A stretch of DNA of 64,000 nt from a virus (Duplodnaviria > Caudoviricetes). Made by a program: the position numbers and the translations under genes. Each line of letters starts with the position of its first letter. The first letter of the stretch is position 1. This document shows, piece after piece, positions 6,134-14,579 of this stretch. The stretch covers positions 1-64,000 of the IMG/VR virus record IMGVR_UViG_3300047160_002455. One strand, given 5' to 3'. The notes beneath the pieces are model-generated. The model searched no databases and had not been told where the DNA came from. It was given only the letters and a program-made list of their open reading frames with translations.

Positions 6134-9100
6134 GTGATAATTCCAGCAGGTATGGAGATTATCACAACCAACCTCAAAAGCGCGGGCGTCCGTCGTGCTA
6201 TTCGCAATGGACGCGAATACTACGTCTGCAGTGCGTCCATCATCAACCCTGGTGTCCTCGCGGGCAGCAAGGGCGCGCTCTACTATCCCCCCGATGAATG
6301 TCAGCGCAACGCTAGAGATTGGGAAGGGACACCGCTAGTCCTCTATCATCCGACTCGCAACGGGCAATACGTTTCGATTCGTGACGATCCTTCCGCAATT
6401 GATCGTCAGGGACTGGGGGAGTTCCTGAAACCGCGCTTCAAATCAAAGCTGGGCGGTGAAATGTGGTTCGACGCCCAGAAGGTTGCCAATGCCGACAAGT
6501 ACCTGGTCAAGAATGGCGTCGAACCCATCCTGCCGCGCTTGCGCAAAGGCATCCCGGTTGAACTGAGCACCGGACTGTTTACTGAGAACATACCAGCGGA
6601 ACAGGGCGCGATGTTCAACGGCAGACCGTACACGCACGTTGCCCGCAACTACCGCCCCGACCATATCGCGATCCTACCGAATCAGATTGGCGCGTGCATT
6701 CTACCGGGACAGGAGATACAGGGACGTATCACCAAGGCTTCAAAAGCCTGGTACACGGGGGAAGCCATTCGGATTGAGACTCTTTCTGGAGAACTTCTTT
6801 CCGTCACTCCGAATCACCCCATACTTACCGATATGGGGTTTGTTCCTGCCAGCGATCTCACAGAAGGTCAAAATCTTTTGCACTATGTCCGGGAAGACAA
6901 AGCCACTACCACCGATACGAACGAAAAGTATGCTCCAGCCTTGGCTGAGGATGTATTTGATGCGCTGGCGAGCCTCTCTACGCATGAGGAAGCTGTAAGG
7001 ACCAGAGCTACGACATTGGACTTCCACGGCGATGCGGGGTTCTTCCAAGGCGATGTCCAAATTGTAAGTCCCCAGAGCGCGCTGTCGAGTGGTAGTGTAC
7101 CCAAGACCGCGAAGAGATTCATACAAGGCGGTTTCGGTGGGAGAGGCAACTGTCAATCGTCTCTGTCTAGTCGCAGCCATACGCAACAGTTCACCAGGTT
7201 GGTGGACGCGACCGACGTTCGCCAAGTTAGCTTTGGCAGTGAATCTCTTACGCTGCTTGAACGTCAGCCCGGAGTACATGAGGCGAGAGGCGGAGGAAGC
7301 GTCTCGCGTGATACCGCGCTCCTTGAGCCAGGCGTAGATGACGCCCTGGTTGATACCCAATTCTCTCTTAATTTCATAAGCGTTTTTCCCAGCGCGGTAG
7401 GCTGCGACAACTTCTCGAACAAGTTGGGGTGGGAAGCGGGCTTCGGAAACCAACCTCTTACCGGATTTTGTGTATTCGGACCTGGAGCGGAACTGAACAT
7501 TTCTCTTCCTAAGACGGTCTCGAACCGTCGAGTTATGGAGGCAAAACTCTTTAGACAACTGCTTCATACTTTTCCCAGCAAGATAACCACGGACAAGATC
7601 GTCCACTTGGACAGATTTTTTCATAATGGTCCCGTATACGATTTTGAATCTTCGCTTGGATACATTATCGCACAGAAACTTCTCGTAAGCAACTGCTCCA
7701 TCAACGATGGTTGTGGAGTGCTGGTCAACGCACGAGGGGGCGACGGTGCAGCATGGTACCCCGTGGTGGGGAACGAAGCGCGGGACGTGCGCTTAGTGCC
7801 GGTTCAAAATGTTTGGACGGATGCAGCTAGGCAGGCATCTGCGGAAGCCCGCAGCGCTTCCAAAAAGGCACATGAGGCATCCGCGAAGATCGGTCACCGT
7901 ACCATCCTCGACCCCAGCTATGCCAGCACGGGGATGTCTGGACCATCTGACATCCACTACCATGCCGCCCACTTGCACATGGGCGCTGCTGCTGAACTGC
8001 TGAACGAAGCGAACAGAGACGATAACGCTGGTTACTTCGATAAGGCAAACATGAAGCGCGATGTTGCCCAGATGCACGAAGATGCTGCCTTGTCCAACTT
8101 CAACGCTGCACGAGAAATCGAGGGATCTGTCCATCGACCAAGTCAACCAAAGCTAGGTTGGCAGCAGAACCAACGAAACCCGACCGCCAATATGTGGTCG
8201 GAGGAAGCGCGTCAGGCAGCACTGGAGGCACGTCGCGCAAGCGCCACTGCCGGTGCCAAGTCCCGCGAAGCGGCTGCCTACCACGGCAGCTTCGAGGAAT
8301 CGGAGATGTACAAGGCAGGGCAGCGCGGTCAGAAAGCTGACTCCGTCAAGCAACATCTACAGGCAGCGGAGATGCACCGTATCGCTGCTGAAAAGCACGA
8401 GCGCACAGCGGACTATCTGGGCAGCGGCGATGCTGGTAGAGGGGAGCACTATCGCGCTGCCAAGTTGAACATGGACGCTGCCGATGCTCACGAGCGCGCC
8501 GCTGGGATCAAGAGCGGTGGCGGGATGCACGGTGGTGGAGGGTTCGGTGCCATGAATCCACAGGGACCGCCTAAACCAGTACAGGCACAGCTATCGCGCG
8601 GCTCCGGTGTTGCCGGTGAGTCTCTGGAAATGTCGCGTGAAGCAGCGCAGCGCGTCTCCAACCAGTGGCAGGCAATCCGCAATGTCTGGACTGAGGAAGC
8701 CCGTGCTGCCGCTGCCGCCTCGAAGCGTGCTAAAGCAATCAGTGACAAGCACCCGGAGCAATCCGAAGAATCAAAAAAGGCAGGAGAGAGGGCATTCAGT
8801 GATGCTAAGTATGCCGGTGGTAAGGGCGGACCGTACTTGCATATTCAAGCGCGGCAATCGCATAACAACGCTGCTGAGATAGCGGAGCGCGAAGGACACC
8901 CCGACCTTGCTGCTGCCCATCGTGAAGCGGGTATTGCCCACGAGACCGCTAGACGGCAGACGGAGGCAGTTCAGTACGTCCACGGCAAAGCGGTGGACCC
9001 GTATGTCAAACCAACCAGCAACGATAAGAAGCAACCGTCTGAGGAACTGGACATCTCCAGTGAGAAGGCATGTCAGATACTGCACGATAAGGAAGTGCGC

Positions 9101-11578
9101 GGGCATCCGCTGACGGACGATCAACGCAAGATGTTTGGCGCGAAGTGCAGTGAATCGCGCAACCAGTGGCACCCGGTAAACAACCAGAGTGACCAGCAGA
9201 GCGCTCCGGCGCAGGTCGTGTCCGGCAGTCAGTCCGCGCTTGCGAGAACGTACCTATCGGCAGGCAGCCGCAACCGCCACCCCGCATCGGGCAAGTTTCA
9301 GAAGGGCAACGCGGGCAGTGGCAATGGTCCAGCGCACGATGCTGCCAAGCAAGGTAAGAACGCTGGGGACTGTGGCTGGGAACCGATTCAGGCAAACTTT
9401 CGGTCACCCGCGTCTCTGTTCAACTTCAACCCATCGGACACAGCATCGTTGCAAGGGGATGCTAAGGACACGTCCGATTCGACCTCGAACTATCGTAGTC
9501 CGGCATCCCTGTTCAACTTCAGCCCATCGGATACGGCAGAAGTCTCTGGAAATAAGGGTGACGGAAGCGTGTTTGGAGACGATCAATTTCTGGACTCGAC
9601 ACCTGGCGGACCCGGCAGCGGCGGTCGCGATGTAGTCGCCAAGCATACGCACAATAAGGACCGATCCCCTGCCGCGATGATGATGCGCCTGGATAAGCAA
9701 GCAGATCCCGGTCGCACCTATGCCCATGATGACACCTACGGGGATAGCAAGACCATGAACAACTTCGTCAACAACTACTGGACGGAGGAAGCTAGGGAAG
9801 CAGCAGCACAGGCGCGACGTGCGAAACTTGGAGGACTGGCAAAGAAAGGTTGGAGCGCACTCAAGACTGCTGGCAACAAGATTGCGTCTACTACTAAGGA
9901 CGTTTATGAGGAAATCGGCGGTCTCGGAAGTGACATCCTCGACCACGGAATCGGCGCGATTCTGGATAACGCAAGCGCTATCCGTCACGCTGCTTCAGAG
10001 GCAGCTGCCTGGAATGCCAACCCGGAGGGCGGCAACTACGACAAGACAGCAACGCAGCGCATCTTCGGTACTCCGAACAAACCCGGTTACGACGGTCGCG
10101 ATTTGTGCGAAGGCATCCACCAGAGTGCTCACCGACTCGCGGGTGACCAGGATGACGATGATGACATTGACGCGGACGATCACCACGTAGGGCAGCTGTT
10201 CGGTTGGTTCGATCCGCGCCAGCAGTGGCAACCTCAGGAGGTGGTTGGTTGGGCGGATACCAAGGGTGGCAGGGAAATCACCATTGAGAGGGAGGCAGGG
10301 GGCGGTCCTGCAAAAGTCAGCAACTGTCATTGCGGTGGAACGTGCAAGAGATGCAGTGACGTTGCCAATCAGGACGATGATGATGACTACGACGATGACT
10401 GTGATGACGATGAACGGGATGATGAGGGCAACTGCCCAGACGATGATGATAACGATGATACCTACAACGCATGGAGCGAAGCAGCGCGGCGGGCAGCTAT
10501 CGAGGCGCGAACGGCATCGCAGAAGGCACACGACGCTACGGTCAAGATCGGTCACGCGGCACAGGGAGTATCCGGTAACGCCCTCAAGTGGGCGGATGAG
10601 GCAGTGCATGGTCACGGTTGGGCGCAGGCAACAGAGGGGGCTGCCAACGCACACATGCAAGCACACGATGCCCTACGGAGGACAGCGGACCAGAAAGCTG
10701 CGATGGGTGACATGCTTGGTGCTAGGGGAGACGTGCGCGCGGCAGGGTTGCACGCGGACGCTGCCAGCGCTCACCGCAGAGCGCTTGTCGGTGTTACCGG
10801 TAATGTCGTGAGAATGACTGCGATTGCCTTGAACGCGGGAGGTTGCGGTTGTGACTGCGACGGTTGCAAGGACTGCAAAGGCAAGATGACGGGTAACGCT
10901 TGGACCGAGGAAGCACGGGCAGCGGCTGCGGAAGTGCGCCGCGCTCATGGGGCTGTAAAAGGCACGAAGCCCGTACCCGGTTGGGCAAAGGGCAGAACGT
11001 CCAAGATGAAGCCCGGTCTGTTCGGCGCGGACGATGAAGCGGAAGGTCACAACGAGCAAGGGTGGAAACCCAAGGCACCGGTGGACACGCGCGGCAAGCA
11101 GGGCGGTTGGACGGAGAAACCGGAGGCACCGAGACAGCAGTGGACGGGGCAACCATCGGAACGCAAGGGCGGCGGTGGTGGTTGGACTGCTGAAACGGAA
11201 GGACCGCGTCCGAGTTGGCATCCCGTCAAGCAGCCGAAAGTGGGCATGTACAACCAGGATCTAGCTGGACCTAGCGTGCCCGCGCCCCCGTCTCCGCCCC
11301 CGCGCGGGGTTATCAGCGCACCCAGCAAGAAAAAGAAAAACACGATGAACCGGGAATGGTCCAGCAAGAAGCGCGAGGAGCATCCCGCTAAGGATTTCGC
11401 GGGTCCGGATCGGTCGTTCCCGATTGAGACCCAGGAGGATGTGGACGCTGCCATCCGTTCCATCGGTCGCACGAAGCACGATCCCGACGTAGTCAAGGCT
11501 GGCATCAAACGGATTGCCAAGCGCAAGGGATTGGATCTACCGCCCTCACTAGCGGAGGACGGTGACGATGGTGACTAA
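6134..11578 (+). CDS. DUF2213-like capsid maturation protease (intein-containing) fused to a long multi-module polyprotein
   Basis: ELSTGLF...YRPDHIAILPNQIGA|CSINDGCG protease motifs; position before scaffold/MCP; C-terminal DFAGPDRSFPI module. Confidence 0.8.
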   Translation: MIIPAGMEIITTNLKSAGVRRAIRNGREYYVCSASIINPGVLAGSKGALYYPPDECQRNARDWEGTPLVLYHPTRNGQYVSIRDDPSAIDRQGLGEFLKPRFKSKLGGEMWFDAQKVANADKYLVKNGVEPILPRLRKGIPVELSTGLFTENIPAEQGAMFNGRPYTHVARNYRPDHIAILPNQIGACILPGQEIQGRITKASKAWYTGEAIRIETLSGELLSVTPNHPILTDMGFVPASDLTEGQNLLHYVREDKATTTDTNEKYAPALAEDVFDALASLSTHEEAVRTRATTLDFHGDAGFFQGDVQIVSPQSALSSGSVPKTAKRFIQGGFGGRGNCQSSLSSRSHTQQFTRLVDATDVRQVSFGSESLTLLERQPGVHEARGGGSVSRDTALLEPGVDDALVDTQFSLNFISVFPSAVGCDNFSNKLGWEAGFGNQPLTGFCVFGPGAELNISLPKTVSNRRVMEAKLFRQLLHTFPSKITTDKIVHLDRFFHNGPVYDFESSLGYIIAQKLLVSNCSINDGCGVLVNARGGDGAAWYPVVGNEARDVRLVPVQNVWTDAARQASAEARSASKKAHEASAKIGHRTILDPSYASTGMSGPSDIHYHAAHLHMGAAAELLNEANRDDNAGYFDKANMKRDVAQMHEDAALSNFNAAREIEGSVHRPSQPKLGWQQNQRNPTANMWSEEARQAALEARRASATAGAKSREAAAYHGSFEESEMYKAGQRGQKADSVKQHLQAAEMHRIAAEKHERTADYLGSGDAGRGEHYRAAKLNMDAADAHERAAGIKSGGGMHGGGGFGAMNPQGPPKPVQAQLSRGSGVAGESLEMSREAAQRVSNQWQAIRNVWTEEARAAAAASKRAKAISDKHPEQSEESKKAGERAFSDAKYAGGKGGPYLHIQARQSHNNAAEIAEREGHPDLAAAHREAGIAHETARRQTEAVQYVHGKAVDPYVKPTSNDKKQPSEELDISSEKACQILHDKEVRGHPLTDDQRKMFGAKCSESRNQWHPVNNQSDQQSAPAQVVSGSQSALARTYLSAGSRNRHPASGKFQKGNAGSGNGPAHDAAKQGKNAGDCGWEPIQANFRSPASLFNFNPSDTASLQGDAKDTSDSTSNYRSPASLFNFSPSDTAEVSGNKGDGSVFGDDQFLDSTPGGPGSGGRDVVAKHTHNKDRSPAAMMMRLDKQADPGRTYAHDDTYGDSKTMNNFVNNYWTEEAREAAAQARRAKLGGLAKKGWSALKTAGNKIASTTKDVYEEIGGLGSDILDHGIGAILDNASAIRHAASEAAAWNANPEGGNYDKTATQRIFGTPNKPGYDGRDLCEGIHQSAHRLAGDQDDDDDIDADDHHVGQLFGWFDPRQQWQPQEVVGWADTKGGREITIEREAGGGPAKVSNCHCGGTCKRCSDVANQDDDDDYDDDCDDDERDDEGNCPDDDDNDDTYNAWSEAARRAAIEARTASQKAHDATVKIGHAAQGVSGNALKWADEAVHGHGWAQATEGAANAHMQAHDALRRTADQKAAMGDMLGARGDVRAAGLHADAASAHRRALVGVTGNVVRMTAIALNAGGCGCDCDGCKDCKGKMTGNAWTEEARAAAAEVRRAHGAVKGTKPVPGWAKGRTSKMKPGLFGADDEAEGHNEQGWKPKAPVDTRGKQGGWTEKPEAPRQQWTGQPSERKGGGGGWTAETEGPRPSWHPVKQPKVGMYNQDLAGPSVPAPPSPPPRGVISAPSKKKKNTMNREWSSKKREEHPAKDFAGPDRSFPIETQEDVDAAIRSIGRTKHDPDVVKAGIKRIAKRKGLDLPPSLAEDGDDGD
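6740..7624 (-). CDS. Putative homing endonuclease: two HTH repeats + Vsr/DUF559-like nuclease, antisense inside the intein
   Basis: YLAGKSMKQLSKEF...TVRDRL and YRAGKNAYEIKRELG...VIYAWL; SPTETALYESL...QRALGTYNLDIA...IAVEV...ILSQGWSILFV. Confidence 0.75.
   Translation of the reverse strand: MKKSVQVDDLVRGYLAGKSMKQLSKEFCLHNSTVRDRLRKRNVQFRSRSEYTKSGKRLVSEARFPPQLVREVVAAYRAGKNAYEIKRELGINQGVIYAWLKERGITRDASSASRLMYSGLTFKQRKRFTAKANLANVGRVHQPGELLRMAATRQRRLTVASPTETALYESLRGLGYTTTRQRALGTYNLDIALEEPRIAVEVQCRSSGPYSFLMRREARQRIKYILSQGWSILFVRIGGSGFVFPDIVQKILTFCEIAGRNKPHIGKYGVIRSDGKKFSRKSLNPNGFPRVPGF
7664..7692 (-). promoter_or_regulatory. Sigma70-like promoter TTGCTT-N17-GATAAT with TGn extension, upstream of the antisense endonuclease
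   Basis: -35 at 7692-7687, -10 at 7669-7664, 17-nt spacer, ~40 nt upstream of ATG 7624. Confidence 0.55.
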
Positions 11579-13382: not shown

Positions 13383-14579
13383 ATGTTCACTGACTTCATT
13401 CTGAACGGGCAAGCCCACGGTTCCGTGGGCGAGCACCTGGCAGGTTGCCGCTTCGACCCCGGTTTGCTGCGCCCGTACATCGACCGCTCCAATCAGCGCT
13501 GCGTCACGATCAATTCGGGACGCACGGATTCCAGCGGGAAACCCATTTACGAGAAGCGACTGGTCGCAGAGATGATTAACAACGGTGTGAGTTCACCGGT
13601 GTTCAATGCTACGTCGCTGCGCAAGGAAGAGTGGATCGAACTCGATAAGGTCGTCATTCGTGAAGCTCGTTTCCGGCTCCGCGCTTGGGCAGACCTTGCT
13701 GCCGCCAATACGTTTGGTGGTTTCAACGGTATGTCCAAGACGATCCTCGAATACGAGTCCATGAGTGACCCCGGTGAGGCAATCGTAGACATGGATGGTC
13801 TTTCGGAAGGTCGTACTGACCGCCCGAAGTTCCAGCTTGAAGGTTTGCCTCTGCCGATCACCCACTCGGACTTCTATTTCAGCGCGCGCCAGCTGGCGGC
13901 ATCGCGTAACAGTGGTACCCCGCTGGATACGACGATGGCAGAAGCGGCTGGGCGTCGTGTGGCTGAATCCATCGAGAAGGTTCTCATCGGTGTTGACACC
14001 GGTGTTACCTACGGTGGGCAGAACACGGCAACCTCCTACGGACGCACCGCGCAGGTCTACGGTTACCTGAACTTCCCGCAGCGCTTGACCAAGCACAACC
14101 TCAACACCCCGACAGGCAACAATGCCTCGTCTACGTTGTCGGACGTGCTGGCAATGCGCAACCAGTTGTACAACAACAAATTTTACGGTCCCTTCATGCT
14201 TTACCACTCGAATGATTGGGACACGTTCCTTGATAATGACTATATCCTCACGGGCGGTAACGTAGCGACCCAGACGCTGCGCGAACGTCTGAAGTCGATT
14301 GACGGGATCATCGACGTGCGCCGTCTCGACTTCTTGACCTCGACCATCCCCGTCTCGACGGATGCAGCGCAGATCCTAACCGCTAACCCATTCACCCTCA
14401 TCATGGTCCAGATGACCAGCGATGTGTGCCGCGCTATCAATGGTATGGACATCACGACGGTGCAGTGGGAATCGGTCGGTGGGATGCGTCTGAACTTCAA
14501 AGTCATGGCAATCCAGGTGCCACAGATTCGCGCTACGTTCGCTGGCAACAGCGGACTCCTGGTCGGGACCACCACGTAA
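13383..14579 (+). CDS. Major capsid protein (HK97 fold, Linocin-M18/encapsulin-like clade)
   Basis: NATSLRKEEWIELD...PLPITHSDF...RQLAASR...PLDTTMAEAAGRRVAE...GPFMLY...FKVMAIQVPQIR. Confidence 0.9.
   Translation: MFTDFILNGQAHGSVGEHLAGCRFDPGLLRPYIDRSNQRCVTINSGRTDSSGKPIYEKRLVAEMINNGVSSPVFNATSLRKEEWIELDKVVIREARFRLRAWADLAAANTFGGFNGMSKTILEYESMSDPGEAIVDMDGLSEGRTDRPKFQLEGLPLPITHSDFYFSARQLAASRNSGTPLDTTMAEAAGRRVAESIEKVLIGVDTGVTYGGQNTATSYGRTAQVYGYLNFPQRLTKHNLNTPTGNNASSTLSDVLAMRNQLYNNKFYGPFMLYHSNDWDTFLDNDYILTGGNVATQTLRERLKSIDGIIDVRRLDFLTSTIPVSTDAAQILTANPFTLIMVQMTSDVCRAINGMDITTVQWESVGGMRLNFKVMAIQVPQIRATFAGNSGLLVGTTT

Follow-up and report, generated by a model that had tools for sequence, protein, structure and literature searches.

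A phage head-gene intein with a putative homing endonuclease gene on its opposite strand, read in the same codon register

The window analysed here (64 kb) is part of the 77-kb IMG/VR record IMGVR_UViG_3300047160_002455, a metagenomic, non-actinophage virus record that is rated complete. In its head module, an open reading frame (ORF) of 1814 aa (6134–11578, + strand) contains a class-1 intein of 333 residues (6695–7693, + strand; residues 188–520 of the ORF), and the opposite strand of this intein holds a 294-aa gene with an ATG start (6740–7624, − strand), whose product is predicted to join two helix-turn-helix (HTH) domains to a Vsr-like nuclease and is a putative homing endonuclease. Sequence comparisons and structure models make it quite likely that the two form one composite selfish element, in which the nuclease that mobilises the intein has its own gene on the other strand. 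This layout has already been described, in a 2025 preprint on actinophages that reports inteins with anti-sense VSR-like endonucleases in minor capsid genes (Gosselin, Arsenault and Gogarten, bioRxiv 10.1101/2025.01.02.630785, version 2025-10-20). New here are the extein and the phage group, together with several details: the fixed register, a selected frame that switches within the element, a nuclease gene that overlaps the splicing domain, and the family size. The parts of the preprint available to us hold no codon register, per-position selection test or family size, which the present analysis supplies.

On the sense strand, the intein runs from Cys1 (TGC, 6695–6697) to Asn333 (AAC, 7691–7693) and is followed by Cys+1 (7694–7696); the penultimate residue is Ser instead of His, as in many family members. 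Its N-terminal splicing subdomain (residues 1–66; 6695–6892, + strand) contains block A, a T-P-N-H block B of the T-x-x-H type at residues 38–41 and an N4-like GQNLL, so that block B, at residue 38, lies unusually close to block A. The C-terminal splicing subdomain (residues 297–333; 7583–7693, + strand) comprises block F (GPVYDFE) and block G (LLVSN). The two subdomains were modelled with pLDDT (predicted local distance difference test) scores of 93–98 and 91–98, respectively, and the model has a Hint fold. The profile of the N-terminal subdomain aligned to residues 55–97 of the RecA intein, and that of the intein to known inteins up to about residue 66–96. The 333-aa intein with intact splicing blocks claimed by the original prediction, which was made from the sequence of the window, is thus present, with Cys1, TPNH and Ser-Asn|Cys all in place. 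Since these motifs are intact and the host gene lies in a head module, protein splicing would be expected.

The same prediction had held that the middle of the intein reads like a shadow frame and shows no LAGLIDADG/HNH motif, and this was borne out. The only Pfam match of the sense insert was Intein_splicing, reached through both ends, with none in the centre, and residues 130–276 (7082–7522, + strand) are predicted to be disordered (pLDDT <50). This stretch appears to be a read-through linker, without predicted structure or sense-frame constraint. A conserved functional domain in the sense centre had been named as an observation that would speak against the proposal; the region is instead disordered, with synonymous-codon use at background. 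A hairpin at residues 101–124 was predicted with pLDDT 70–79. In the model, the splicing domain folds from the two ends alone (roughly residues 1–66 and 297–333), possibly with the hairpin at ∼101–124 included.

The coordinates and phase of the antisense ORF (7624→6740) were as originally given: both frames start at positions congruent to 2 mod 3 and therefore share exact codon boundaries. Two tandem HTH domains occupy its residues 7–103 (7316–7606, − strand). Residues 10–103 matched the profile of the two-HTH DNA-binding protein 2lvs_A (E = 1.4e-10), the Pfam families HTH_23, HTH_28 and HTH_Tnp_1 matched at residues 14–41 and 62–103, and helices are predicted there. The Vsr/DUF559-like nuclease domain follows at residues 158–292 (6749–7153, − strand), where MTES_1575 (PF18741; 2.5e-5) and DUF559 (PF04480; 0.011) were found; like those to the several HTH families, these Pfam matches are sub-threshold. 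The AlphaFold model of the protein has a mean pLDDT of 91.3 and a predicted template modelling score (pTM) of 0.70 and shows a Vsr-like catalytic fold, the structural alignment to Vsr reaching model residue 292. Profile and fold matches thus agree with the predicted pair of HTH repeats and Vsr/DUF559-like nuclease, and the lack of any DUF559 or Vsr profile match, which would have counted against the proposal, was not observed. Across the family, the antisense ATG is mostly the complement of the His codon ahead of V-Y-(D/N)-L in intein block F, and a GGAG or GAGG motif ∼10 nt further upstream is the complement of Leu-Glu or Leu-Gln codons in the same block. ATG was present in 55 of 65 loci and the GGAG/GAGG motif in 42 of 65; the start in the window lies three codons further out than usual.

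Which of the two frames is constrained was read from substitutions in 12 close pairs, with no sequence used twice (two pairs have identical counts and may be duplicates). In the exteins, substitutions at sense codon positions 1, 2 and 3 numbered 79, 66 and 237, and 160 changes were synonymous only in the sense frame versus 7 only in the antisense frame. The corresponding counts were 31/12/81 and 69 versus 21 in the N-terminal splicing part, and 7/7/35 and 25 versus 1 in the C-terminal splicing part. In the centre they were 403/105/211 and 84 versus 277, so that changes concentrate at the antisense wobble position. The same pattern was present in the Gordonia trio alone. Over 67 non-redundant loci, the sense frame is the better conserved up to about sense residue 59 and again from about residues 297–306 onward, the antisense frame being ahead in between, and for sense residues 130–276 the identity is 0.11–0.20 in the sense frame versus 0.17–0.48 in the antisense frame. 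Within the small clade formed by the window and loci L012 and L013, antisense identities over sense residues 130–296 were 0.54, 0.43 and 0.39 versus sense identities of 0.32, 0.28 and 0.26. Judged by these sequence comparisons, purifying selection acts on the antisense frame in the centre and on the sense frame at the ends.

Each frame also keeps the other open. The nuclease gene must avoid TTA, CTA and TCA because the sense frame would otherwise close, and the predicted avoidance was found: none of the 49 Leu/Ser codons of the window ORF is of this kind, versus 16 of 155 in the window exteins. The same triplets in the sense frame of the family, where they are in-register antisense stops, occurred in 0 of 15,204 central codons versus 1.5% per codon in exteins. 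This extein-only rate is the fair control; one that uses the flanks where the antisense ORF ends is inflated by ascertainment.

In two places the functional parts of both products appear to share codons, and we regard these as real double coding on the strength of codon and divergence patterns. The first is the overlap of the antisense C-terminal tail with the N-terminal splicing subdomain, block B included (6740–6892, both strands). As predicted, the nuclease gene runs through ∼50 codons of this subdomain, and both frames are constrained at block B. The end of the antisense ORF falls between sense residues −3 and 27 in 67 of 67 loci, without exception past block B, and a conserved antisense C-terminal motif, Y-G-V-I-R, is the mirror of block B. 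At sense residues 28–58 of these loci, none of 302 Leu/Ser codons makes an antisense stop, and divergence at positions 1 and 3 is 0.058 and 0.084, versus 0.24–0.28 in parts that are under sense constraint only. Since the structural alignment to Vsr extends to residue 292, the tail opposite block B seems to be part of the nuclease fold. The second place is the sense pentapeptide D-F-H-G-D (residues 109–113; 7019–7033, + strand), opposite the antisense catalytic strand (V/I)-A-V-E-(V/I). A synonymous-codon test on the 67 loci showed near-fixed codons here (A199 as GCC in 62 of 65, V200 as GTG in 52 of 55, E201 as GAA in 62 of 67), with the consequence that the sense D-F-H-G-D is kept. Sense D113 itself, retained in 62 of 67, is better conserved than the antisense residue opposite, which is V in 45 and I in 19. 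Most invariant antisense residues show background codon use and leave the sense residue free to vary; E164, for example, is encoded by GAA in 27 loci and GAG in 36, opposite sense F in 27 and L in 36. The pentapeptide could be either a piece of the splicing fold or a nucleotide-level signal.

The insertion is exact as judged by alignment. The N-extein (6134–6694, + strand), which ends ...DHIAILPNQIGA, carries a DUF2213/phrog_760-like head-module domain: residues 1–187 of the host ORF matched phrog_760 (E = 1e-18) and, weakly, DUF2213 (E = 0.021). It can be aligned, up to the common GA, with intein-less homologues of Erwinia phage Midgardsormr38, where the protein is annotated as a prohead protease, and Brevundimonas phage MaInes. 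Both homologues are contiguous at the site (...DHxAIL..GA|(A/C)(T/S)xx(D/Q)G(C/V)G...) and lack the 333 residues, which places the intein precisely within the conserved motif GA|C(S)xxDGCG of a DUF2213-like protein. The C-extein (7694–11578, + strand), delimited by the same alignment, begins with CSINDGCG and continues into a long repeat-rich tail. The GC content of the intein (51.2%) is below those of the host gene (57.6%) and the window (56.3%), which is consistent with acquisition from elsewhere.

Searches with the antisense protein returned a large family. By tblastn, the ORF was found in 39 phage records from Gordonia, Rhodococcus, Pseudomonas, Vibrio, Idiomarinaceae, Cronobacter, Klebsiella and Escherichia phages, always opposite a MuF-type head gene, some of these genes being annotated 'with inserted intein'. 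Homology to actinophage sequences was clear, with Gordonia phages Malisha (5e-23) and Fosterous (5e-16) matching on the strand opposite the minor capsid gene. A HMMER search over 1.84 billion cluster representatives gave 813 matches at E ≤ 1e-10 and 1810 at E ≤ 1e-3, the weaker ones perhaps being unspecific HTH or DUF559 proteins. Antisense homologues opposite an intein-bearing head gene were also present in 80 IMG/VR loci. Neither frame is interrupted in the window or in any of the 92 related loci compared with it. In the nine annotated phage loci among them, the antisense ORF is intact, has its own start and lies inside the annotated host gene; in the remaining 83, the opposite frame in the same register runs without a stop over 277 to about 1500 codons (450–1500 on contigs that cover enough of the host gene), and both of the other frames are short. 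This openness, with the purifying selection described above, runs counter to a non-conserved antisense ORF, which the original prediction had listed as a ground for abandoning it. In every annotated record examined, the head gene alone was called at the intein locus.

Most of the related inteins reside in MuF-type proteins (Pfam Phage_Mu_F or Phage_min_cap2), with H-P-N|C-R-C as the predominant insertion site, and a few of the host proteins had no family match. Those of the window, L012 and L013 sit at G-A|C-S in a DUF2213-like protein. Because the closest relatives of these three that likewise lack the general-base His (P0006, P0009 and P0010, discussed below) are located in MuF genes, the window lineage seems to have changed its extein. 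Two divergent members were noted beside these. In Rhodococcus phage REQ3 (L101; JN116824.1, locus 739–2517), a shorter relative, the intein reads H-P-N|A-V-L-E ... V-V-S-N|C and the antisense ORF encodes the nuclease domain alone, both HTH domains being absent; the inteins of IMG/VR loci L017, L038, L068 and L089 likewise begin with Ala. Edwardsiella phage MSW-3 (L100; AB767244.1, locus 1–1617) has an intact, divergent antisense HTH-nuclease ORF in a head-gene intein, which starts at the usual place inside block F. This phage was not listed by tblastn, and similarity searches therefore undercount the family.

The catalytic centre can be compared with that of I-Bth0305I, whose composite motif consists of E170, D196, H213 and D222 (Taylor et al. 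2011, PMC3239194). The window nuclease keeps E164, D190, E201, R221 and G229-W230. E164, near-invariant in the family, corresponds to E170 of I-Bth0305I; D190, which is invariant, to D196; and E201, likewise invariant, to the extra acidic residue that I-Bth0305I has where Vsr has Phe62. W-H takes the place of the general base H213 in about 40% of the wider family.

These observations suggest how the composite element would work. The intein would be translated within an essential-looking head-module protein made of a DUF2213-like domain and a long tail and presumably splices itself out, so that the insertion would be harmless to the phage. All that the linker at residues 130–276 would need is freedom from stop codons. 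Read in the opposite direction and in register, this DNA would yield the 294-aa two-HTH, Vsr/DUF559-type nuclease, a relative of I-Bth0305I and, by analogy, probably the homing enzyme of the intein. During co-infection, as with EDxHD-type enzymes, this nuclease would cleave the allele that has no intein near ...ATTGGCGCG|TGCTCCATC..., whereupon the entire element would be copied into the broken gene during repair. That the antisense gene is transcribed and translated, that the intein splices and that the nuclease cleaves site-specifically is inferred.

Several points weigh against this reading. The window protein has no equivalent of H213: its motif is A-V-E-V-Q-C, with Q-C-R-S-S-G-P-Y after E-V. 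No Asp is aligned with D222, the equivalent of which is unclear, and the complete composite motif of I-Bth0305I is thus not found. The DUF559 and MTES_1575 scores fall short of the curated gathering cut-offs. The antisense start in the window is preceded only by a weak ribosome-binding motif and by no sigma-70-like promoter, although that consensus may not be the host's. In the window subclade, the antisense frame is not more conserved than the sense frame at sense residues 59–129, which belong to the nuclease domain; this could reflect double constraint, saturation or relaxed selection. In addition, most of the comparison loci were fetched by the block-B mirror pattern, which biases the set towards intein-embedded copies. 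The architecture of an EDxHD-type enzyme, as originally proposed, therefore stands as to the Vsr-like fold, E164 and D190 but not as to H213 and D222, and the reading of EVQC in place of EVDG.H was correct, as was the caution about activity drawn from it.

Some of these points would fit a decaying element: the family would have a genuine antisense gene, the window copy of which would be an inactive or decaying nuclease, and the intein would be inherited vertically only, the ORF being still open because too little time has passed or because the DNA-binding part has another use. The weak ribosome-binding motif and the lack of antisense excess in the nuclease-domain region of the subclade agree with this, as does the absence of the general-base His, which extends to the nearest relatives P0001, P0002, P0006, P0009 and P0010. 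Yet the His-less state is found in at least six sequences that are only 32–58% identical to the window protein and whose ORFs are intact, with E164, Y187, N188, D190, E201, R221 and G229-W230 all kept. Such intact but divergent ORFs suggest a working variant active site. Many of these proteins read E-x-E or E-x-Q, which points the same way, and I-Bth0305I has N208 at that position. Moreover, the HTH region of the window subclade is clearly antisense-constrained, and the presence of the subclade in two exteins, MuF and DUF2213-like, argues for past mobility. We therefore consider a dead, vertically inherited copy unlikely; the window nuclease itself could have lost some or all of its activity or could rely on a different residue.

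Two more explanations were weighed, both of lower probability. The antisense protein could be a real, expressed DNA-binding nuclease with a role other than intein homing, for example a regulator, an anti-competitor nuclease or an endonuclease gene that rides along, the intein being no more than a safe place for it to land. There is no known cleavage target, tandem HTH modules resemble regulators and transposase DNA-binding domains, and versions without HTH domains exist, as in REQ3. However, no free-standing copy was recognised among the top 150 representatives, which appear intein-embedded, nearly all of their C-termini carrying the block B mirror (seven short contigs that were inspected were intein-embedded in 7 of 7 cases). 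The element also sits at conserved motifs of two different head genes, as is typical of homing sites, and the preprint, in the parts available to us, reports distributions consistent with horizontal transfer for two VSR-like groups (bioRxiv 10.1101/2025.01.02.630785). On balance, a non-homing role is improbable. Least probable of all, with hardly any chance of being right, is that the antisense ORF is a non-coding shadow frame, of the kind that readily remains open in register within GC-rich, Ala/Asp/Gly-rich genes, and that its conservation only mirrors a conserved sense domain. The host gene does have other in-register antisense open stretches (225, 196 and 195 codons), and Y-G-V-I-R does mirror block B; the length of the ORF alone is not beyond chance. 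Its homology, fold and selection signature do exceed chance. Central substitutions cluster at the antisense wobble position, the sense residue varies freely opposite invariant antisense residues such as E164, the confident, nuclease-like model belongs to the antisense product while the sense centre is disordered, and the ORF is retained in low-GC Vibrio, Idiomarinaceae and Escherichia phages. The other antisense stretches have no Pfam match and look like composition-driven shadow frames. Sequence and model evidence together thus favour a real antisense gene.

The long in-register antisense ORFs at 9404–9988, 9995–10666 and 10673–11221 (− strand), which have no Pfam family, served as negative controls. 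In five high-GC, Pseudomonas prophage-like IMG/VR records (L022, L025–L027 and L033), the nuclease strand is open for >1200 codons upstream of the nuclease ORF, which illustrates how easily shadow frames arise at high GC.

A more specific version of the composite-element reading is held only tentatively, at somewhat less than an even chance. It states that functional domains share codons, that D-F-H-G-D is conserved beyond what the antisense frame needs, that a mirror of the nuclease core has been taken into the fold of the intein itself, and that the lineage has moved from MuF genes to a DUF2213-like gene with a His-less variant of the active site.

The window intein resembles the actinophage inteins with anti-sense VSR-like endonucleases in having a complete antisense nuclease ORF within a contiguous intein, an open sense frame, a Vsr-like fold predicted for the antisense product and an unstructured sense centre. 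It differs from them, as far as the available parts of the preprint go, in its extein, which is a DUF2213-like head-module protein instead of a minor capsid (MuF) protein, and in its carrier, a 77-kb metagenomic virus that is not an actinophage. In the window, moreover, the ORF starts within block F and overlaps ∼50 codons of the N-terminal splicing subdomain. The preprint names cluster 47 (Angelicage, Affeca and others) alongside endonuclease VII-like inteins; in our data, the MuF inteins of Gordonia phages Angelicage (L006) and Affeca carry an antisense Vsr-like ORF. There may be more than one intein per phage, or the sentence in the preprint may mean something else.

With I-Bth0305I and the EDxHD family (PMC3239194; PMC2677866), the window protein shares a Vsr-like fold behind modular N-terminal DNA-binding units and, as set out above, matches to E170, D196 and the acidic residue at the Vsr Phe62 position. 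I-Bth0305I has NUMOD motifs and H213, whereas the window protein has two 2lvs-like HTH domains and lacks the His. EDxHD enzymes are encoded in group I introns or between split-intein halves, on the strand of the host gene, whereas the window nuclease lies on the opposite strand. The fractured-gene arrangement (Dassa et al. 2009, PMC2677866) was considered as the same layout and rejected, as it comprises a split intein and three genes on one strand. Antisense LAGLIDADG inteins are known from Synechocystis DnaX and a Chloroflexus SpoVR-like protein (preprint bioRxiv 10.1101/2025.01.02.630785, which cites Gorbalenya 1998 and Gogarten et al. 2002). By that account they, too, have an endonuclease opposite the intein strand and an open host frame, but they belong to another nuclease family and to cellular hosts, not phages. 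Canonical bifunctional inteins such as PI-MtuI and PI-PfuI (LAGLIDADG or HNH) likewise combine a Hint fold with a mobility module between the splicing parts, but there the nuclease is in the same polypeptide, whereas here it would be a separate product of the other strand.

The antisense-endonuclease intein, reported so far, in what we could consult, from a few dozen actinophage genes, is thus part of a phage family that is very large, widespread and regularly overlooked in annotation, and the element appears able to change its host gene. As a clean natural case of long sense/antisense double coding, in which the selected frame switches along one element, it should be useful for testing methods that detect overlapping genes. 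It also suggests a way for inteins to acquire nucleases: a free-standing endonuclease gene would invade in one orientation or the other, after which stops in the host frame would be selected against. For annotation practice, intein-bearing MuF and other head genes should be checked for a second, antisense gene.

Some features of the surrounding genes were noted in passing. A virion structural protein gene (13383–14579) lies downstream of the host ORF. In Brevundimonas phage vB_BpoS-MaInes (L095; ON529866.1, locus 890–1300), an annotated recombination endonuclease VII gene stands free on the opposite strand, directly upstream of the DUF2213-like homologue that has no intein; in the window it is this gene that has been invaded. 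The C-extein contains six copies of the motif N-x-W-(T/S)-(E/D)-(E/A)-A-R-x-A-A-x-E-A-R (window 7808–10990), at residues 559, 686, 850, 1214, 1445 and 1588 of the 1814-aa ORF, a span of ∼1000 residues. This repeat-bearing tail is rich in Ala, Asp, Gly and Glu and has no Pfam match; the repeat could be of a scaffold-like or internal-protein type.

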